This document shows, piece by piece, positions 5,197 to 33,082 of a stretch of 63,752 bases of DNA. The stretch spans positions 1 through 63,752 of the forward strand of contig JAHFOV010000004.1 of the NCBI GenBank assembly GCA_023261505.1, read 5' to 3'. The number at the start of each line of letters is the position of its first letter. Position 1 is the first letter of the stretch. The position numbers and the translations under genes are program-made. The notes below the pieces were generated by a model. The model worked only from the letters and a program-made list of their open reading frames with translations. It was not told the origin of the DNA and did not search any database. The stretch comes from Planctomycetota bacterium (GTDB lineage: Bacteria; Planctomycetota; Brocadiia; Brocadiales; Bathyanammoxibiaceae).

Positions 5197-5262
5197 ATTC
5201 CAAATTAGAAATTTCAAATTTCAAATTAAAAATATATTTGCGATAATTTACTGCTGAACTTC

Positions 5263-5616
5263 ATGTTAAGAGGCATAACGTATATCCTCAGAAAGCTGGA
5301 CGAAGGCTGGGGGAAGCTAAGAAGGTTCTACCTGGTTCACTATAGAGGGGATTACGTCCAGAGGCAGCTGCTGCTAAGGAAAGGCGAGTGCCGGCGGTGC
5401 GGTAGTTGCTGCCGTATCATGTTCAGATGTCCGCATCTTAAGGGGGAAAATCAGTGCGATATATACACCTGCCGATATAAGCAGTGCATCGCCTTTCCTA
5501 TAGACAACCGCGACCTCAAATACCTTCGCCATACCTGTGGTCATTATTTTGTAAGTCCACGAGGTGGCAGGACCACCGCCATCATAGAGGTAGAAAGGAT
5601 TGAAGTTGTGAAATGA
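5263..5616 (+). CDS. YkgJ-like cysteine-cluster (Zn/Fe-S) protein
   Basis: CRRCGSCC...CPHL...CDIY..R...CIAFP...C pattern. Confidence 0.65.
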   Translation: MLRGITYILRKLDEGWGKLRRFYLVHYRGDYVQRQLLLRKGECRRCGSCCRIMFRCPHLKGENQCDIYTCRYKQCIAFPIDNRDLKYLRHTCGHYFVSPRGGRTTAIIEVERIEVVK

Positions 5617-6278
5617 GACTCCCCATTTCCAGATATGGCCTGAGAGAGGTATCCCTTTTCACTTTTATCTTATCCCTGCTATTTTTATTATCTTTCTTTC
5701 TTCTTCCCTCTACATTTCTAAAAATAGTAAGCCCACTGTTCCTCTTAGCCGCTGCCTTTGTCTTTTACTTCTTTCGTGACCCAGAAAGGCCAATCCTAAA
5801 AGATGAAAAGAAACTCCTTTCCCCCGCCGATGGCAGGGTAATGGAAATAGCCTCAGTAGAGGAAAAGGAATTTCTCCACAAAGAAGCCACTAAAATTGGC
5901 ATCTTCATGTCTCTATTTGATGTCCATGTGAACCGCCTGCCCTGCAGCGGCAGGGTGGAGTACCTTAAACACCTGAACGGGCGCTTTCACGATGCCCGCA
6001 CGAAGGAGGCCTCAGCAGAAAACGAATGCAGTTTTATAGGTTTGGTAATGAACGGGGGCAGGCGACTCCTTATAAAACAGGTGGCTGGTATAATTGCCCG
6101 GCGTATTGTTTGTACCTTATCCACCGGTGACTATTTGGAACAGGGACAGCGGTTCGGCATGATAAAATTCGGCTCAAGGGTAGAAGTTTTTATCCCTAAA
6201 GAAATACCATGCAGGGTACTAGTGAAAGAAGGACAAAAGGTGAAGGCCGGGCTAACCATACTGGCAGAGGTAGATTAA
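5613..6278 (+). CDS. psd: Phosphatidylserine decarboxylase proenzyme
   Basis: FFRDPER, SPADG, IFMSLFDVHVNR and the autocleavage motif KFGSRV. Confidence 0.93.
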   Translation: MRLPISRYGLREVSLFTFILSLLFLLSFFLLPSTFLKIVSPLFLLAAAFVFYFFRDPERPILKDEKKLLSPADGRVMEIASVEEKEFLHKEATKIGIFMSLFDVHVNRLPCSGRVEYLKHLNGRFHDARTKEASAENECSFIGLVMNGGRRLLIKQVAGIIARRIVCTLSTGDYLEQGQRFGMIKFGSRVEVFIPKEIPCRVLVKEGQKVKAGLTILAEVD

Positions 6279-15401: not shown

Positions 15402-16394
<993 letters not shown>

Positions 16395-16448
16395 ACGTTA
16401 AATGCAGCAACGGGTTACATTCCTGTTTCTATCAATAACGACTTAATA

Positions 16449-17639
16449 TCAATGCCCTCCTCCATGCACACCGTGTCCACCGCCATGCGTACCGCCACCT
16501 CCATGGTCGCCATGCATCCCCCCCATACCAGCAGAACCCACCGGTTCTTTTAGCCCCTGGGGTATAAAGCGGTATACCCATACATGGGCCTCATCGCTCC
16601 TAAAAACTGGCAGAAAGTAGCTGAGTCCCTGCCCCTGTCCTGTACTTAACGGAAGGAGCTTGAGTATAAGCGCCTCCTTCTTCTCGGGGTTTCCATAATC
16701 CTCAAGATACCAGAGGGTGTAATGCTTTGGAAATATCTGGGCATAGTAGGAAGTAATTCCACTATTCTTTATCCACTGGTTTATGAGTGACATATCACCA
16801 GCAACACCGACTACTGACATAGGCCTGATATTTTTTGATTCTAGTTTCAAATCTGCCTCCGCGAGACGGCTCATAGCATTTATCACGGGGAAGTCTTCGG
16901 CACTCACCAGGATATAAACCGGCCGTTCTCCTGGAGCCAAAATGCCCAAAAGTTCCCTTGCCTCGGCATCCTTAGAGCAGAAGAACCTGGCTATGTCCTT
17001 GGTCTTTTGGCCATCCTCAAGGCCCTCCTTATCCTTAAACCACTTAATTAGGTAATCAAGGGTTGCCTTTTGGTATTTATCACTGGGTACAGAGAGACCT
17101 TTCAGAAGTTCCAGGCTAGGGCTGGAGGTCAAGATGTCCTTTCCTGTAAATAATTTTACCCTCTTTCCATGATGCCACCAGCATAAGATTAGAGAGTCTT
17201 TCTCGGTATTGTTCTTTATAAAATCGTAGGTCTTGAGCCAGGCAGGGGAGGTAAACGATACCATCTTCCCTGAGGAGACTTCTGAATAGTCTATATAGTA
17301 AATAAGGGGTTCGTATGTCTCCCCTCCAGAACGGTACCTGAGTCGATATTCTACAGCTATCAGCGAGTCTTTTGGCAGTGTAATAGTGTGTTCTTCTTTG
17401 ATAATGATGAGGTCTGTAGTTAACCTCTTTTCGTATTTTACCACCTTTTCAATAGGCTCTATTGAAGCGGGCAGTAGGAACTCTGTAAAATTCTCAGGGT
17501 CTGTTTCCTGCACCTTTATGTATTCATAAAGGCTTTGCCCCTGTGCTGCGCCTATTTCAAAGAAAAATAAAATAAAGCTCAAGCAAATGAAAAGAGGCAA
17601 AAGAAATGCACATTTCTGAGAGTATCTATTTTTTGGCAT
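16449..17639 (-). CDS. Secreted protein with an STT3/AglB/PglB C-terminal-like domain and a His/Gly-rich tail
   Basis: Signal-peptide-like N-terminus; W..TYDFIKNNTEKDSLILCWWHHG, DIARFF and YILV; tail GGMHGDHGGGGTHGGGHGVHGGGH. Confidence 0.65.
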   Translation of the reverse strand: MPKNRYSQKCAFLLPLFICLSFILFFFEIGAAQGQSLYEYIKVQETDPENFTEFLLPASIEPIEKVVKYEKRLTTDLIIIKEEHTITLPKDSLIAVEYRLRYRSGGETYEPLIYYIDYSEVSSGKMVSFTSPAWLKTYDFIKNNTEKDSLILCWWHHGKRVKLFTGKDILTSSPSLELLKGLSVPSDKYQKATLDYLIKWFKDKEGLEDGQKTKDIARFFCSKDAEARELLGILAPGERPVYILVSAEDFPVINAMSRLAEADLKLESKNIRPMSVVGVAGDMSLINQWIKNSGITSYYAQIFPKHYTLWYLEDYGNPEKKEALILKLLPLSTGQGQGLSYFLPVFRSDEAHVWVYRFIPQGLKEPVGSAGMGGMHGDHGGGGTHGGGHGVHGGGH

Positions 17640-26754: not shown

Positions 26755-27468
26755 ATGTATTCAAGGGCTATTACTTTATATAACTTGATTGAGTTTTTAA
26801 ACACTCTTAAGAAAATTCCTAACGTTAATCATGTAATGAAGAGGCACTTATCGAAAAAGATAGAGAGTGGGGCGTATGCGGAGCTTGAGACGGCTTATCT
26901 TGTTAGAAAGGCAGGTTATAAGGTGTCTTTCTCCAGCCCCAAAGCCCCTGCCTCGAACCCTGACCTGATAGCCTGGATAAATGGTCAAAAGATAAACATA
27001 GAAATTATATTTTTGCAAAGGCCCACCGGCGGTCGAATGAAACTTACAGAAGTGGACAGAATCAAAAGGGCCATAGATAACAAATCCAGGCAACTACCCA
27101 GCGTTGAACCTGGTATTATTGTACTTTATAGTCAGCAGATTACGATAAGAGACCTGCAAAGGGCTGTTCACCAGATTCAGGAAAGGCTTTCAAGGTATCC
27201 TTATATCAAGGCCCTGGTAGTCATAAAAGACTTTCCAGGTAGGGACAGGTCTAAAGACCTGTCCACAAATTTGCCCCAGTTTTGGACAGACCTGAAGGTT
27301 TGTCCATACATTGTTTCTCTAAAGGAGACTGATGAGTTCCTACGGGCAAGGACAAGGTTTAATAATTTTACCCGTTATACATTTATTGTGAAGGGCACAG
27401 ATCTAAAGCCTCATCTTTTAGACGGCCTTAAGAAGGTCTTCATGGCCACAAGCGTAACTTCTTTATAG
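26755..27468 (+). CDS. Hypothetical protein with a possible PD-(D/E)xK nuclease fold
   Basis: AELETA...G..V.F...NPDLIA...INIEII; 12 bp after the tilS stop. Confidence 0.5.
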   Translation: MYSRAITLYNLIEFLNTLKKIPNVNHVMKRHLSKKIESGAYAELETAYLVRKAGYKVSFSSPKAPASNPDLIAWINGQKINIEIIFLQRPTGGRMKLTEVDRIKRAIDNKSRQLPSVEPGIIVLYSQQITIRDLQRAVHQIQERLSRYPYIKALVVIKDFPGRDRSKDLSTNLPQFWTDLKVCPYIVSLKETDEFLRARTRFNNFTRYTFIVKGTDLKPHLLDGLKKVFMATSVTSL

Positions 27469-27524: not shown

Positions 27525-28235
27525 CTATTCCCTTGTAAGCGGCACAAAGAGCACGGGCGCTACTTCTTCTTTCTTTATCTCTCCAGTAACGTCCTTAATT
27601 ATAAGGGTTAAACTCTGGGTTCGGTAGGGCCGGCCTATAGGGATGACCATTCGGCCTCCGGGCTTGAGCTGGTCTAGCAATGCAGGGGGGATTTGCGGGC
27701 AGGCCGCAGTAACTATAATGGCATCAAAAGGTGCCCTATCCGGCATTCCCAAATAACCATCCCTGGCATAGACAATCACATTGTCGTAGCCAAGTTCTCG
27801 CAGGGTCTCACTAGCCCTTTTTGCCAGTTCTTTGTTTATCTCTATCGTGTAGACCGTTTTGGCTAAAAGGGAGAGTATGGCGGCCTGGTAACCCGAACCT
27901 GTACCTATCTCCAGCACCTTGTCTTCTTCTTTTAGGTCCAAAAGTTCGGTCATTAAGGCCACAATGTAAGGCTGGGAGATGGTCTGCCCTGAGCCTATGG
28001 GTAATGGACCGTCCCCGTAACTTAAAGACCTCAATTCCTTAGGGACAAAGCGGTGCCTCGGCACAGCCTCCATAACCGCAAGTACACGTTTATCCTTTAT
28101 CCCTCTTGCCGCAATCTGCTCCTCCACCATCCTCTTGCGCTCCTTGGCAAAAGATTCTTCCTCATCGGCATTTAGCCATTGGGTCAATAAGAGAATCAAG
28201 AGGAAGGGGAGAGATAATCTGAGCGGCGTTTTCAT
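27525..28235 (-). CDS. pcm: Protein-L-isoaspartate O-methyltransferase (with signal-like N-terminus)
   Basis: VPRHRFV, GQTISQPYIVA, VLEIGTGSGYQAA and PFDAIIVTAA. Confidence 0.95.
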   Translation of the reverse strand: MKTPLRLSLPFLLILLLTQWLNADEEESFAKERKRMVEEQIAARGIKDKRVLAVMEAVPRHRFVPKELRSLSYGDGPLPIGSGQTISQPYIVALMTELLDLKEEDKVLEIGTGSGYQAAILSLLAKTVYTIEINKELAKRASETLRELGYDNVIVYARDGYLGMPDRAPFDAIIVTAACPQIPPALLDQLKPGGRMVIPIGRPYRTQSLTLIIKDVTGEIKKEEVAPVLFVPLTRE

Positions 28236-28326
28236 GTGGATATTAGGGTTTAGAATTTTAAGGGCCCATACACACTTATCAGCCTAAGGTGGGGATAACA
28301 AAGCTACATTTCTTCATAGTTACACC

Positions 28327-29565
28327 CTAAACCGAGTTTGACCTACACCCATTACACAAATTATTATTTTTACCTTCGCCAATAGGACAATCTATTGGTT
28401 CACATTTGAAAACATATCCACATGAAATAAGGACTACTGGGCAAACTTTTTTTTCTAAGAGGTTACGTTCGGTTTGAGGAAATTGCCATTTCCAGCAGAT
28501 TCTTTTTGCCCCCCCGTCACGGAACAAACAGAAACCTTCCATTTTCTTCTCGCACATTCTTGGAGCAAAATCAAAAGAAATGTCAAATTGTTCAGGGTAA
28601 TATCCGTTTTTTTCCTCTATACTTAGCGTCTCAAATATTCTCCGCATCATCTGGGAAGCATTCTTAACAAAGACCTTTCTATTATTAACTTTTTTGTCTT
28701 TGAAAAGAGGTTTAAGGAGGGCGTTAGAGAACCTTATATTCCAAACATCCCCCGGAAATTCCAAAGAGAAAAGACTATCTTGACTTAACAACTGCTGTTG
28801 GTCTTCCCCAAATGATTTAATGAAGGATTCTCTTAAAGGACTTCCGGGTTTGACATAATCCCTTAATGCCGCCCATAATCTTTTCGCCCCGAATCTACCA
28901 GATTTATTCCAATTATCATAGCCAGTGGTTAGGCCATTATTTAATACGCTCTTATATTGGCTCACACCATTCAAAAAACTTTGACGATTATTATTTTCAA
29001 AATTGGGGAAGTCTTTGTTAACATCCTTATATGTAAGTAAGTATAAGAGATAGGCCATCTTACCTAAATTATCATTGCCATTTGACCAAAAGTTCCTTTT
29101 GCTCAACAAGAAATTTATGATGTTCTTCTCGTAATCCAAAAGAACTGTGAGAGTTCTTGCTATTGAATAAAGGTCATCCTGATACCGTGTTGCAAATTTC
29201 TGGAAGTTTGTCTTTTCTCTGGATTTGAACAAGTCAATAATTGCTCCCCTTGTAGGAGCTTCCATGAAACCGTTCAACCTCCCGAATATTTTTTCCATTA
29301 GATCGTTTTCATTTTGGGTCTCATCGCTTGCGTATTTATTGATTACCTCACTAAATATTTGGCCTCCTATTTCCCAAACTGGTTCGAAGGGACGCATTCG
29401 ATCAGTTATATAGCATAACCAGTGGACAAGAATTTTTTGATCGTCAGACAATTGCCTAAACTTATCTATATTAAGCAAACCGGACATCATTATATCTTCG
29501 CTATGCCATCTAGCATGGTCGAGCCAAGCAACCAACCTCAAGATATTCCCAAACTTTTCATTCAT
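28327..29565 (-). CDS. AT-rich hypothetical protein, possibly a distant HhH-GPD/DUF2400-like DNA glycosylase with a Cys-rich tail
   Basis: GAKRLWAALRDY, LEFPGDVWNIR, then about nine C-terminal Cys (CEKK..FCLF..C..CPV..CGY..C..CPI..CNGC). Confidence 0.5.
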   Translation of the reverse strand: MNEKFGNILRLVAWLDHARWHSEDIMMSGLLNIDKFRQLSDDQKILVHWLCYITDRMRPFEPVWEIGGQIFSEVINKYASDETQNENDLMEKIFGRLNGFMEAPTRGAIIDLFKSREKTNFQKFATRYQDDLYSIARTLTVLLDYEKNIINFLLSKRNFWSNGNDNLGKMAYLLYLLTYKDVNKDFPNFENNNRQSFLNGVSQYKSVLNNGLTTGYDNWNKSGRFGAKRLWAALRDYVKPGSPLRESFIKSFGEDQQQLLSQDSLFSLEFPGDVWNIRFSNALLKPLFKDKKVNNRKVFVKNASQMMRRIFETLSIEEKNGYYPEQFDISFDFAPRMCEKKMEGFCLFRDGGAKRICWKWQFPQTERNLLEKKVCPVVLISCGYVFKCEPIDCPIGEGKNNNLCNGCRSNSV

Positions 29566-29668
29566 CTCACTTACCTTTTTTCACTTTTTTACTCCAGTGC
29601 CAATCCTTTTCAATCAAATCCCTTATAAGAGAGGTCTTCGATACGGTTTCGTTTTTTCTTCTTAGGCC

Positions 29669-29699
29669 AGCACGTGCGGTGCGTCAATACGCACCCTAC
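29669..29699. repeat. GTAG-family REP-like palindrome
   Basis: GTGCGGTGCGTCAATACGCACCCTAC. Confidence 0.55.
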
Positions 29700-29718
29700 A
29701 CTTCTTAAATCACCACTT

Positions 29719-29793
29719 TTAAGGTTTCACCACAAGGCTTACCTCCTGCCCCTCCGTAACTTCTCCTACAATAGAGGCCTCTTGGACGTCCCT
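29719..29793 (-). pseudogene. Relic duplicate of the selD 3' end (last 24 codons plus stop)
   Basis: Translates as RDVQEASIVGEVTEGQEVSLVVKP* versus selD RGVKEATIIGEVTEKQDVCLVVKP*; 17/24 identical. Confidence 0.85.
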
Positions 29794-29816
29794 CGGCCAT
29801 AAAGGTTTCTTAGCAG

Positions 29817-29905
29817 GTAGGGTGCATCTTGGCGCACCCCACAATTCTGCATTTTCTGTAGCGTGCGACCTCGTGTCGCACGTGCGAGGCAAGCTCGCAC
29901 GCTAC
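29817..29905. repeat. Two adjacent GTAG-family REP-like palindromes
   Basis: GTAGGGTGCATCTTGGCGCACCCCA and GTAGCGTGCGACC...GCTCGCACGCTAC. Confidence 0.7.
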
Positions 29906-29926
29906 ATGCTTTACGAGCTTTTATAT

Positions 29927-29965
29927 TTAATAAACTTCCTCATGCGTCCCAATCTCTATTAGAAA
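29927..29965 (-). pseudogene. C-terminal fragment of a YafQ/RelE-like toxin
   Basis: FLIEIGTHEEVY*, resembling the conserved ..DIGTHDEVY* end of this toxin family. Confidence 0.55.
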
Positions 29966-30112
29966 GTCCCTGCTGTCAGGTAACTCTTCCCGCAGTGCAG
30001 ACTGCTCACCACTGGGATATTTTCTATCACCAGCAGATACTTGCCTTTGCCATAGGTTCTGGCCACTCGGCGGATACGCACACCCTTTTTTACCGCAAAT
30101 GTCGCACCTCAT
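29959..30112 (-). pseudogene. YgiT-type zinc-finger (MqsA N-terminal-like) pseudogene, frameshifted and truncated
   Basis: MRCDICGK, then after an A6 run GVRIRRVARTYGKGKYLLVIENIPVVSSLHCGKSYLTAGTF*. Confidence 0.7.
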
Positions 30113-30194
30113 CTGACTTCTCCAATCTTTACAGAGCATTACACTTGTCCAAAATAATCTTAGCAAAGACCTCCAATGCCATAATATCCCTTGA

Positions 30195-30248
30195 GTAGCC
30201 GCAGGCTTTAGCCTGCGTATAATAACGCAACCTAAAGGTTGCGGCTAC
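30195..30248. repeat. GTAG-family REP-like palindrome
   Basis: GTAGCCGCAGGCTTTAGCCTGCG...CGCAACCTAAAGGTTGCGGCTAC. Confidence 0.75.
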
Positions 30249-30363
30249 ACAAACAAACCAGAGTTGGAGGTAGACTAAACTCGGTTAGGATAACGCCAAA
30301 ATCCTTGTTCTAATACCTTACTTTGGAACGGAAAAGGGGCATGGCTAGATTATCTTGGACACC

Positions 30364-30390
30364 GGTATTGCTCCATAGAAGTGTTCTCAT
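30364..30390 (-). pseudogene. N-terminal stub of a YafQ/RelE-like toxin
   Basis: TAATG overlap with the antitoxin stop; MRTLLWSNT, then similarity is lost. Confidence 0.45.
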
Positions 30391-30599
30391 TAGGAAAGCT
30401 CACGCATAAGATCATCTACTGTTCCTTTCCTAACCTCGCCCTTTGTATATTCCTCCTTTGCCTCCTTAATGCTCTGGGCAAGTCTGTCCCTTCGTTCCTC
30501 TAGTAACCGCTTTTTAACTATCTCAATAAGTGACTCTCTTTGTTCTTCAGGCAAAGATTCAACAAGTTCAATGACCTTATCAAAAGTAATATCCTTCAT
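30390..30599 (-). CDS. Small type II antitoxin-like protein
   Basis: F..VIELVESLPEEQRESLIEIVKKRL.E.RR..LA..IKEAKEEY..G....GTV.DLM.EL pattern; SD GGAGG. Confidence 0.65.
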   Translation of the reverse strand: MKDITFDKVIELVESLPEEQRESLIEIVKKRLLEERRDRLAQSIKEAKEEYTKGEVRKGTVDDLMRELS

Positions 30600-30637
30600 C
30601 CTTTTAGCCTCCTGACATTATGTTGGAAAATGAGAGA

Positions 30638-30724
30638 TTATGCCACCAGATGCTTGCCTTTTCCATATATTCGGGCAACTCGGCGGATACGGACGCCATT
30701 TTGTCCACAAATGTCACACAACAT
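30638..30724 (-). pseudogene. Second, truncated YgiT-type zinc-finger fragment
   Basis: MLCDICGQNGVRIRRVARIYGKGKHLVA*, paralogous to 29959-30112. Confidence 0.65.
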
Positions 30725-30733
30725 AAGTTAAAA

Positions 30734-31384
30734 TTATACTCCCCTAACTACCACTCTGTCACCACGCATTAATTCCCATTGGCGCTGGTATTCCATGATT
30801 CGTGCGACCTCGCTTACGAATTCTTCATCGTAGCCGTGGCGTTCAAGCAGATAAAAGCCTAGCTCCATGCCACTGCTTATGCCGCCTGCGGTGATTAGCC
30901 GGCCTGTGTCCACCACGCGCGCACGGCTAATTTCGACCTTTGGGGCGTAGTCCTTTAGCCGGTTGAGGGGGGTCATTGCTTCGCTAGGATCCGCCTCTTT
31001 TCGGGACGTCGCCGCCAGTCCATCGAGGAGCCCCATAACCCCATACACCCATGACCCTGTGCAGACTGAACATAGCAACGTCGTCACGGGTAGTTCAAGC
31101 ACAAACTGGCGTAAGCGCTGATTGCGTATCTCTGTACGTGTACCGATGCCACCAGGTATAATAAAGGCGGTTACGTTAGGATGATGGTCAAGGGCATAGC
31201 GTGGCGTCACCATCATGTTACCAGTCGCCACTACCGGCGTTCCCGAATCTCCTATAAGAAAGACATCTATCTCAGGGTCTAGACGTCTCGCCACAGACAT
31301 CACCCCAAAAGGCGCCGCCCAGTCCACTACTTCGGCCCCGTTAAAAATATATATCCCAATACGAGGCTTGATTTTACCATTCAT
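30734..31384 (-). CDS. DJ-1/PfpI family protein
   Basis: YIFNGAEVVDWAAP, IIPGGIG, nucleophile SVCTG and ITAGGISSG. Confidence 0.9.
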   Translation of the reverse strand: MNGKIKPRIGIYIFNGAEVVDWAAPFGVMSVARRLDPEIDVFLIGDSGTPVVATGNMMVTPRYALDHHPNVTAFIIPGGIGTRTEIRNQRLRQFVLELPVTTLLCSVCTGSWVYGVMGLLDGLAATSRKEADPSEAMTPLNRLKDYAPKVEISRARVVDTGRLITAGGISSGMELGFYLLERHGYDEEFVSEVARIMEYQRQWELMRGDRVVVRGV

Positions 31385-31511
31385 TTGTCGGCTCCTTTTC
31401 GATAATGAAATAGAGAATATGGACTTCATAAGGGGGTAATACGTGTTAAATACAACCGTTAACTAGAACTCTTTGCTTAAATAAATGTCTCCTATTATCG
31501 GCAAAGAGCGA

Positions 31512-31537
31512 GTAGGGTACGTTTCAACGCACCCTAC
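31512..31537. repeat. GTAG-family REP-like palindrome just downstream of selD
   Basis: GTAGGGTACGTTTCAACGCACCCTAC. Confidence 0.65.
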
Positions 31538-31559
31538 AGTTACGATTTAACATCGTTTT

Positions 31560-32603
31560 TTACGGTTTCACTACCAGACAGACATCCTGTTTTTCAGTAA
31601 CCTCTCCAATTATAGTAGCCTCCTTGACCCCCCTGCTTTGTAGATCTCTTATCAGAGAGTCGGCCTTTTCCCTGGGCAGAGAGATAAGAAGTCCCCCTGA
31701 GGTCTCTGCGCCATAAAAAACATCCAGGAGGTCGTCAGAGATTTTTCCTTCTAATCTTACCTTGGGGGATACGTAACTTTTATTTTGTACCGATGCCGCC
31801 GGCATCAGTCCCGATGAGGCATGGCGCAATGCTCCTGTCATAAGGGGTATCTTTCCGGCCTGAAAGGACAGGGTTGCATTGCTTGCAAGGGCCATCTCCA
31901 TGCTGTGTCCCATGAGGCCGAAGCCTGTGATGTCAGTGCACGCATTAACTCCTGCCTCTTGCATCGCCTCTGAGGCCACTGCATTCAGGGACTTCATGGT
32001 GGTGACCATGGCCTCGACTTCCTCTTCTGAGGCCTCTTCAGCCTTATAGGCAGAGATTATTAGCCCTCCTCCCAGGGGCTTGGTTAGCACCAGCACATCC
32101 CCAGGTTTGGCCCCGGCATTGGTAATTACCTTTTTGGGATTCACTACCCCGGTAACAGAGAGTCCAAACTTTATCTCAGTGTCCTGTAAAGTATGGCCTC
32201 CGACCACTACCGCCCCTGCCTCGTGCACCTTTTCTGCCGATCCCCTAAGGATTTCCGCAATGACGCTTAGCTCCACTTCCCTCATGGGGAAGGCCAGGAT
32301 ATTCATTACAGTTAGAGGCCTTCCCCCCATGGCATAGACATCGCTCATGGAATTAGCGGCGGCTATCTGCCCGTAGTCATAAGGGTCATCTACAATAGGG
32401 GAAAAGAAGTCAAGGGTTTGGACCAGGGCCACTTCAGGGCTAATCTGATAAACCCCTGCATCGGCAAAGGTCTTTGGCCCTACCAGCAGGTTTTTGTCTG
32501 GGAAATCTGGTAAGTCCTTCAGCACCTCCGCCATGCACTCAATGGAGACCTTACCGGCTCAGCCCCCGCACAGGGCATAATCTGTCAGTCGCTTTTTTTG
32601 CAT
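31560..32603 (-). CDS. selD: Selenide, water dikinase, selenocysteine-containing (UGA codon 15)
   Basis: ATG 32603 gives MQKKRLTDYALCGG-U-AGK..., TGA at 32559-32561 in frame with the ORF-track protein; DAGVY, DFFSPIVDDP, SDVYAMGG, GGHT and TDITGFGL. Confidence 0.93.
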
Positions 32604-32611
32604 AGTTTCTC

Positions 32612-33082
32612 CTACAGGTGTCCAGCGAATTCTGCTATCTTTGGTTTTGCCAGTTTCTCCCAGTCCGAGTACTTCATCCTTATAGTCTCTACATGACTAC
32701 CTGCCTGGAAGATTATTTCCGGGTCCTGTGTTAATGCCTTATCTGCATAGAGTTCCAGGCCATAAAGGTGGACGATTGGAGGCATAGCTCCTACATCGCA
32801 GTCTGGAAAGGCGGTTTTAAACTCCGCTTCAGTGGCCAGCCTGGTCTCTGGGTCATTTAAGAGGGTTTTAATCTTCTCAATGTTGACCTTATGGCTAGCA
32901 GGCAATACAGTCATTACAAGTTTGTCCTTGCTCTTAATCATTACCACTTTTGCCAGATATTGACCTTTTACATGGAGGCTGTGTGCTACTTCTTGCGCGG
33001 TGTATACCTCCTGATGGGTAGAAAGCTTGTAAGGTACCTTACTTTTATCCAGGAACTCTTTTAAGTTCCGTGCCACAGTCAT
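32612..33082 (-). CDS. YbaK/EbsC family aminoacyl-tRNA deacylase
   Basis: H..VYTAQEVA, LAKVV, LATEAEF...F.DC.VGAMPP and AGSH. Confidence 0.9.
   Translation of the reverse strand: MTVARNLKEFLDKSKVPYKLSTHQEVYTAQEVAHSLHVKGQYLAKVVMIKSKDKLVMTVLPASHKVNIEKIKTLLNDPETRLATEAEFKTAFPDCDVGAMPPIVHLYGLELYADKALTQDPEIIFQAGSHVETIRMKYSDWEKLAKPKIAEFAGHL

Follow-up and report, generated by a model that had tools for sequence, protein, structure and literature searches.

Several described systems leave a gene with a live 3' end and a displaced one further downstream. Lambdoid phage 21 and the element e14 integrate in the 3' end of the Escherichia coli icd gene and carry a replacement end; orphan C-terminal modules of rhs and cdiA are displaced gene ends that come with immunity genes; and homology-facilitated illegitimate recombination has reportedly been followed in laboratory transformation assays of naturally transformable bacteria, by de Vries and Wackernagel in 2002 and by Prudhomme and colleagues in the same year. 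The "insertion with long target duplication" of restriction-modification (R-M) units is said to have been treated also by Nobusato et al. in 2000 (Gene 259:99). Here we analyze a gene-end duplication in a 63,752-nucleotide stretch of DNA (contig JAHFOV010000004.1 of the Planctomycetota assembly GCA_023261505.1, family Bathyanammoxibiaceae; hereafter the window, with positions counted from its first letter), in which a diverged copy of the 3' end of selD, the gene for selenophosphate synthetase, lies downstream of the intact gene and is separated from it by a block of accessory DNA.

In the R-M insertions the repeats often span the stop codon of the target, mobility genes are lacking and relatives display empty sites (Furuta, Abe & Kobayashi 2010, NAR 38:2428, PMC2853133). 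The published table gives repeat identities from 44/46 to 47/47, and no proven mechanism is offered (PMC2853133). For the selD locus we argue that the displaced end was probably left by an insertion that needed no integrase, found its anchor in homology to the gene end and added accessory DNA at the junction between selD and pcm.

A displaced and diverged end of selD

The anammox-related genome (G000) holds one selD copy according to an own-genome search, the remaining matches being PurM-, ThiL- or HypE-type kin, and in all relatives each selD gene contains one in-frame TGA. The live C-terminus reads ...RGVKEATIIGEVTEKQDVCLVVKP. Downstream on the same strand, positions 29719-29793 encode RDVQEASIVGEVTEGQEVSLVVKP, that is 24 codons and a TAA, and translation of 29719-29961 yields ...PLWPRDVQEASIVGEVTEGQEVSLVVKP*. 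Seventeen of the 24 residues are identical to the live tail and the stop position is shared, so that translation bears out the original prediction of a diverged selD 3' end at this place. A chance match is excluded, because among 58,459 stop-terminated open tails, taken from the genome in all six frames, the best end-anchored identity to the selD tail besides the relic is only 7/24; the E-value of the relic per genome is 0.0035 with full-length selD as the query and 8.5e-5 with its 57-residue tail. We also reject debris of a paralogue as the source, since the genome has a single selD, and with it falls the scenario that the original prediction had named as its own refutation, namely a selD paralogue elsewhere.

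At the DNA level the repeat is longer than first stated, extending over ~147 nt (copies A and B in Table 1), and a gapped local alignment of the two copies covers 146 nt at 68% identity, from -93/-95 to +55/+52 around the stop, taking in the spacer and a 26-nt repetitive extragenic palindrome (REP) hairpin 3' of each stop codon. The longest identical run measures 8 nt in the coding part and 12 nt inside the REP. Upstream of -75 the relic carries a frame-shifting 2-nt indel, upstream stops bar its translation from any gene, and it has eight private substitutions, six of them non-synonymous and including the conserved Gly of RGV; these private changes and the indel indicate, as far as sequence can tell, relaxed constraint and a modest time without selection.

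The locus is a true assembly. The source is a metagenome bin of 147 contigs in which scaffolding artefacts do occur (identical 121-nt repeats around 100 N on contigs C68, C61, C81 and C140), yet an assembly artefact or chimeric contig is so improbable here that we give it practically no weight, because independent assemblies reproduce the locus. A contig from another sample (L208) is 99.55% identical over window positions 32700..30685 and L213, which Logan assembled from a different run, matches positions 30671..28065 at 99.58% identity, so that two independent assemblies cover the whole block without gaps; across the relic and its REPs, L213 and the window agree at 182/182 positions, and a third assembly, a 21.6-kb contig of the European Nucleotide Archive, has equal gene order and spacing. 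Further against an artefact, the two copies are just 68% identical, and analogous relics stand in the unrelated bin G001. The L208 contig itself terminates within the repeated start of a YgiT gene (30030-30107 / 30643-30719), which is probably an assembly break.

How the copies diverged is informative as to their origin. Their 22 differences fall 5/2/15 on codon positions 1/2/3, and 15 of 22 at third positions departs from the ~45% expected under neutral drift of one copy (binomial p = 0.024). Third positions differ at 15/24 between the copies as against 11/24 between genera, while only 7/48 differ at positions 1 and 2. Compared with the live selD ends of L212, L209 and L211, the relic differs at 7-9/24 third positions, as against 15/24 from its own neighbor, and these three ends, at 55/72, are its nearest. 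Because the differences are third-position biased and the relic lies nearer the ends of other lineages, the copies derive, on this substitution pattern, from different selD alleles of one clade and not from a local duplication that decayed. The original prediction had gone on to suppose that the present C-terminus may be foreign. One copy does come from another selD lineage, and it may be either of the two: the current end, its REP (REP_A) and the DJ-1 gene behind it show collinearity with both L119, the closest relative, and conspecific contigs, and we found no switch of nearest relative across the block, gene-by-gene identities being star-like at 72-82% on both sides.

The selD-pcm junction in relatives and other gene ends in the genome

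Among the relatives compared, which belong to Candidatus Brocadiales / Brocadiia in the phylum Planctomycetota, family synteny runs TilS-(237 aa)-Pcm-[gap]-SelD-YbaK-RecJ. An exact search with the Pcm protein of the window gave no database entry. The alignment with relatives that had been proposed as a check reveals an empty site in other genera: seven lineages (L042, L044-L048 and L126) have selD and pcm 70-500 bp apart with one selD end. In the close clade, where selD shares ~80-82% nucleotide identity and relationships are star-like, the filling of the block differs in every genome, with a REP and a DJ-1 gene in L119, two intact toxin-antitoxin pairs in G004, a zinc-finger gene, a truncated RelE and a HEPN protein in G010, an antitoxin and a ParE toxin in L211, and a small unknown gene in L209. 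A 336-aa protein of the G010 block (L040 10389-11399) has a weak match to Csx1/Csm6-type CARF+HEPN proteins (PADLOC, E = 2e-6), which adds a further gene of defence type to the hot spot.

A search of the selD tail against 92 genomes finds selD-end relics order-wide in G000, with one, and in G001, with two, and in no others. In G001 the proximal relic has no private changes and the distal one, directly before pcm, has five; the proximal relic and the DUF5678/retropepsin cassette behind it reproduce the live arrangement of G012. Together, the empty sites elsewhere, the changing blocks within the clade and the two G001 relics uphold the idea that the selD 3' end, or the selD-pcm junction, serves as a recombination site. 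The DUF5678 and retropepsin-like cassette thus stands 3' of selD in G012 and 3' of the proximal relic in G001 (L041 3700-4300, L043 909-1512); it is also found in G000, at an unrelated place and flanked by 127-nt direct repeats (C72 3541-4735), so one cassette type occurs at different targets. In the Brocadiaceae-family genome G057, contig C12 holds two equal-scoring full-length selD genes 10.5 kb apart (5201-6235 and 15721-16755), which stem from a large tandem duplication or else from faulty assembly.

The cargo itself bears marks of movement. At third positions the antitoxin gene has diverged from its G004 counterpart by 0.24, where selD, pcm and ybaK show 0.41-0.51 (Fisher p = 3e-4); in the comparison with L209, identity reaches 91% in the zinc-finger segment and 81% in selD. 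These values indicate, judged by divergence, a recent horizontal exchange of the antitoxin cassette at the selD locus; with antitoxin and zinc finger both closer than the core genes, accessory pieces have moved between lineages after their split, always behind selD.

The same kind of scar recurs at other gene ends of the genome. We compared the last 28 residues of every long open reading frame (ORF) with all stop-terminated tails and then carried out a nucleotide self-comparison; identical 121-nt repeats around exactly 100 N, which mimic gene-end duplications, were discarded as scaffolding artefacts (Table 1). For no fewer than 15 further genes, the final 57-206 nt recur as a short open frame in the same orientation, 0.15-3.5 kb downstream. 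Housekeeping genes predominate among the targets, which include leuS, ppdK, proB, acs, tyrS, a cobK-like, an nrdJ-like and a radical-SAM gene, and most inserts are confirmed toxin-antitoxin pairs: a ParE toxin (PF05016) accompanied by an upstream 69-aa partner taken as its antitoxin, HicA/HicB, DUF433/DUF5615-PIN, MNT/HEPN and DUF2283, as well as an IrrE-type Peptidase_M78 protein beside a 126-aa ORF judged by eye to hold an XRE-type helix-turn-helix. Insert sizes go down to 92-650 bp, the smallest being a 92-bp hairpin element. In the ten cases with at least 85% identity, mismatches distribute 22/7/65 over codon positions 1/2/3 (p = 2e-6), a third-position bias that once more marks the copies as two alleles. 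No att-like motif is shared by the repeat boundaries across 18 cases. At the C34 gene end three copies enclose two unrelated cassettes, the distal copy being the more diverged, with the same polarity as in G001.

Contents of the block

On the minus strand the order is selD, REP_A, DJ-1, YgiT start, antitoxin, palindrome, YgiT frameshift, toxin tail, palindrome, REP_j, relic, 412-aa gene and pcm (Table 1), with 1.69 kb inserted between the repeat copies, and DJ-1/PfpI, toxin-antitoxin debris and palindromes make up the block between them, just as the original prediction had described. The DJ-1 gene is 78% identical to, and collinear with, the gene directly 3' of the selD-REP in L119, and is present in the conspecific L208. 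Two YgiT-type zinc-finger gene starts (30030-30107 and 30643-30719) are 82% identical, one of them truncated and the other frame-shifted; they contain a direct repeat (D2, 30030-30089 / 30643-30702, 83%). The intact antitoxin has lost its RelE partner, of which only the first ~25 nt remain at 30365-30392, and the antitoxin-toxin region 30365-30641 has 88% nucleotide identity to the G004 pair. The G010 gene to which the frame-shifted zinc-finger gene is related matches YgiT_finger TIGR03831, and the toxin remnant is 92% identical to the toxin tail of G010 and 82% to the intact toxin of G004, which matches RelE_StbE, TIGR02385. Neither tRNA genes nor Rfam families were found in the region. In the tilS-pcm interval, a 237-aa ORF (26755-27468, plus strand) is conserved in G004 and partly in L119, and has no match in Pfam, NCBIfam or PADLOC.

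The 412-aa gene between relic and pcm stands out by its G+C content of 36-39%, against ~50% in the flanks. Its product has no match in Pfam, NCBIfam or PADLOC; the AlphaFold model is confident (pLDDT 91) and all-alpha, with a conserved C-terminal Cys cluster, and no fold in the PDB matches it. The protein family is widespread, in Chloroflexi, Planctomycetes and Bathyarchaeota, and carries no annotated family or domain; its members lie beside a tRNA-Leu gene, in the case of the closest homologue, or inside defence islands, near DUF1156/DUF499 and AbiE. When the source of the relic was sought through these homologues, their contexts contained no selD. We rejected the gene as a hidden recombinase, given the lack of a family match and of a PDB fold match and the defence-island settings of its homologues. 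On the predicted model, the protein looks like cargo rather than a known mobility enzyme, and it may be an undescribed defence-associated protein.

Table 1. Features of the selD-pcm region (window coordinates) and gene-end duplications found elsewhere in the genome (contig coordinates, G000).
Feature	Location	Strand	Remarks
selD, selenophosphate synthetase, selenocysteine type	31560..32603	-	intact; translated with TGA=U; in-frame TGA 32559-32561 = codon 15
Copy A of the repeat	31507..31655	-	last ~31 codons of live selD, stop, 22-nt spacer, REP_A 31512-31537
DJ-1/PfpI family gene	30734..31384	-	Pfam PF01965, E = 2e-11; likely start ATG 31384; longest ORF to 31429
Truncated second copy of YgiT zinc-finger gene start (MLCDICGQNGVRIRRVARIYGKGKHLVA*)	30640..30720	-	direct repeat and nucleotide-level self-scan
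Intact 69-aa antitoxin gene	30390..30599	-	weak VapB15-like match
Palindrome, 28+28 nt	30191..30252	.	between antitoxin and zinc-finger pseudogene; inverted-repeat pair I1
Frame-shifted YgiT-type zinc-finger (MqsA-like) gene	29966..30123	-	77% identical to G010 gene
RelE/ParE-type toxin C-terminal remnant (...DFLIEIGTHEEVY*)	29927..29965	-	last 13 codons
Second-type palindrome (GTAGCGTGCGA...TCGCACGCTAC)	29857..29906	.	25+25-nt hairpin; adjoins REP_j; pair I3, REP2 census
REP_j, junction REP (GTAGGGTGCA..GCGCACCCCAC)	29817..29842	.	26-nt palindrome; abuts 5' edge of relic
Copy B of the repeat (relic)	29669..29816	-	best-kept part 29719-29793; stop, 19-nt spacer, REP_B 29674-29699
412-aa cargo gene, function unassigned	28327..29565	-	between relic and pcm
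pcm, protein-L-isoaspartate O-methyltransferase	27525..28235	-	Pfam PCMT, E = 2e-65; conserved downstream neighbor of selD; far edge of hot spot
Scar locus	C25 38139-38896
Scar locus	C7 17708-18699
Scar locus	C127 19010-19878
Scar locus	C88 1075-2432
Scar locus	C113 21614-22304
Scar locus	C91 7265-8555
Scar locus	C86 5156-7661
Scar locus	C34 1929-2970
Scar loci	C24 54-467 and 4537-5143
Scar locus	C23 369-1330
Scar locus	C37 9468-13176
Scar locus	C27 50461-50674
Scar locus	C124 12419-14515
Scar locus	C18 18018-18729
Scar locus	C66 9226-10220
Discarded artefact	C68 4161-4502		mimics gene-end duplication
Discarded artefact	C61 4729-5070		mimics gene-end duplication
Discarded artefact	C81 2815-3156		mimics gene-end duplication
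Discarded artefact	C140 4753-5094		mimics gene-end duplication

Competing explanations and relation to known systems

We favor an insertion anchored in the selD end, which might have proceeded as follows. DNA from a related Brocadiales lineage, in which that lineage's own selD end was joined to accessory genes, would have entered in linear or circular form, and ordinary homology of the RecA type inside the gene would have let it pair with the resident selD. The far side could have been closed by a second crossover in the selD-end copy (Campbell-type, or "ends-in"), in which case the incoming DNA would have been a circle excised between the repeats that flanked it in its previous host, or alternatively by illegitimate joining at a REP hairpin's edge. 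Either way selD would be kept intact with one end, and the other end, resident or incoming, would be stranded downstream as the relic, the block being reworked later by gene decay, further insertions and the arrival of the low-GC 412-aa gene. More tentatively, we propose a general cycle of "replacement-end homing", in which small accessory cassettes (toxin-antitoxin pairs, defence genes) may spread among related genomes, each travelling with the last 50-200 nt of a housekeeping gene of its previous host as a homology arm and integrating by host recombination at that gene in the next host, where the resident end would stay behind as a relic, relics stacking with the oldest farthest away and pop-out circles restarting the cycle.

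Several observations weigh against this account. The statistics of the selD pair rest on 24 codons, and the protein-level scan favors frame-preserving relics, the ten young cases (at least 85% nucleotide identity) being detectable regardless. Roughly every second repeat in the genome-wide set has its end inside the stop codon, a precision that the model does not predict, and at each of the three selD relics, one in G000 and two in G001, the 5' edge directly adjoins a REP, which could point to a REP-specific enzyme and suggests that the hairpin edge is a preferred joint or that some REP-specific activity is involved. Neither a conspecific empty-site allele nor a donor was found, the conspecific contigs carrying the block, and the direction of the event is therefore unobserved. 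Finally, homology alone cannot explain how a cassette comes to lie at a new gene for the first time.

The original prediction thought of an integrative element that targets a gene end, and the arrangement of live end, cargo and displaced end is indeed the layout that such elements leave. On this explanation an element with its own tyrosine or serine recombinase and a replacement end would have integrated at an attB ~95 nt before the selD stop, integrase and att core being later lost or eroded; in its favor, the three selD relics begin within 15 nt of one another (-95, ~-88 and ~-80), as a fixed crossover site predicts, the stacked relics of G001 resemble tandem accretion, and the closest homologue of the 412-aa protein has a tRNA-Leu gene as its neighbor, as is typical of islands. 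The idea of an integrase-borne element nevertheless did not hold up. No recombinase or transposase match was obtained among the ORFs of the block or of the roughly one dozen related blocks inspected; the three tyrosine recombinases of the genome (PF00589) are all on other contigs (C37, C112 and C145); and no serine recombinase occurs in the block or the related blocks, the genome-wide search having covered PF00589 and not serine recombinases. The 8-nt maximum of identity in the coding parts leaves little of a core, with erosion by age as a possible reason, the 412-aa protein lacks a recombinase fold, and more than 15 unrelated genes show the scar, with inserts down to 92-650 bp and boundaries that have no motif in common, all of which makes such an element unlikely. 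Slightly less probable again is a long target duplication formed in situ, by a staggered break with fill-in or by unequal crossing-over between a REP edge and microhomology near -90, after which cargo entered and the downstream copy drifted. The published name "insertion with long target duplication" implies such a mechanism, and the junction reads exactly "REP edge | selD -95", as a tandem duplication of end, spacer and REP would give. Drift of a dead copy, however, hits the codon positions equally, contrary to what is observed both here and in the ten younger cases; the third-position divergence exceeds that between genera with so few changes at positions 1 and 2; and the relic is nearer the live ends of other lineages than its own neighbor.

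The REPs invite a further explanation. They consist of two 10-11-nt inverted arms around a 4-6-nt center and number 28 in the genome, three of them within this 1.9-kb block, where ~0.07 neighbors within 2 kb are expected per REP, and in G000 and G001 one flanks each copy of the selD end or its junction. In the REP/RAYT (REPIN) system, a REP family is accompanied by a cognate Y1 (RAYT) transposase gene that is itself flanked by REPs; here, the 26-nt REP would be the site for a RAYT-like Y1 transposase or a trans-acting tyrosine recombinase, and the block would have been built up by one REP-to-REP event after another, with the selD-end fragment carried along. The genome does have a weak Y1_Tnp match on C118, although it is marginal at 20 bits; moreover, REPs are missing from the junctions of the genome's other gene-end duplications, REPs elsewhere are mostly solitary, and the duplicated DNA is target-specific coding sequence, so we regard REP-directed recombination as improbable. 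REPs as general cassette borders were likewise rejected, as this is not seen elsewhere in the genome. Two further element classes were considered and dismissed. For a diversity-generating retroelement the mismatches would be confined to adenines of the downstream copy, and here they involve all bases, as counted over the ten ungapped cases and as judged by eye for the selD copies; no reverse transcriptase is found among the block ORFs; integron gene cassettes have an attC of ~57-141 nt and depend on an IntI integrase with attI, and the hairpins here are 26-nt or 50-nt perfect-type palindromes with no recombinase nearby. That the relic was retained for a function, as an RNA structure, a terminator or a homology arm for excision or exchange of the block, is highly improbable. 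Its frame and stop are intact across 24 codons, and the identity over 182 nt holds between conspecific assemblies that differ by 0.4% elsewhere; yet at that divergence zero mismatches in 182 nt is not unusual, no Rfam family matches, and its mostly non-synonymous private changes, loss of the conserved Gly, frame-shifting indel and upstream stops are hard to square with a retained function.

Few prokaryotic genes are as mobile as toxin-antitoxin and defence cassettes, yet most chromosomal copies have no recognizable vehicle. The footprint of live end, cargo and allelic relic, seen at this locus and at its 15 or more sister loci, points to host recombination guided by a carried target-gene end rather than to an integrase. 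If this is true, housekeeping gene ends would be landing pads through which small uncultured genomes gain accessory genes with the target gene undisrupted, and age-ordered stacks of relics would provide an easily scored marker with which gene gain could be dated and traced in metagenome bins. Replacement-end homing, should it prove correct, would be a recombinase-free mode of mobility behind a sizeable share of gene gain in Brocadiales. Such relics also carry a warning for annotation, being neither paralogues nor pseudogenes of a second gene copy.

Compared with known systems, the locus shares with phage 21 and e14 the sequence of live end, cargo and displaced diverged end, and the replacement that differs mostly at silent sites; those elements, however, encode an integrase beside att and have an identical core at both junctions, neither of which was found here, and many of the present inserts are too small for an integrase. 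Homology-facilitated illegitimate recombination resembles our preferred reading in its one-sided homologous anchor and microhomology joint, in the lack of a dedicated recombinase and in placing a donor-type end upstream and the resident end downstream, but it predicts neither the stop-codon precision nor a REP at the joint. As in rhs and cdiA, new 3' modules enter via conserved upstream homology and push older ends downstream, so that distal means older; there, however, the ends encode different toxins, whereas the selD ends encode one housekeeping C-terminus and the cargo lies between them.

The likeness to insertion with long target duplication goes further. In both, the insert is shorter than 20 kb and holds no transposase or integrase, the repeat derives from the target and is far longer than the target duplication of a transposon, it often spans the stop so that the target survives, and the cargo includes "addictive" gene pairs. 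Set beside the published definition, the selD block has target-derived direct repeats well above 30 bp (~147 nt), one-copy empty sites in related genomes (the seven other-genus lineages) and an insert far below 20 kb without a mobile-element gene (1.69 kb, with DJ-1, antitoxin and debris). It differs in that no restriction or modification gene was found in the selD block, the cargo between selD and pcm being toxin-antitoxin remnants, DJ-1 and an unknown gene; in that its repeats are not near-identical, the selD copies reaching 68% with a third-position bias and the younger cases of the genome 86-97%, a synonymous bias that speaks for alleles and not for one staggered cut; and in that events at selD-type scars are stacked serially. 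The selD case is therefore best placed as a variant that works like long target duplication, the closest published kind, and stands outside the set defined by R-M units.

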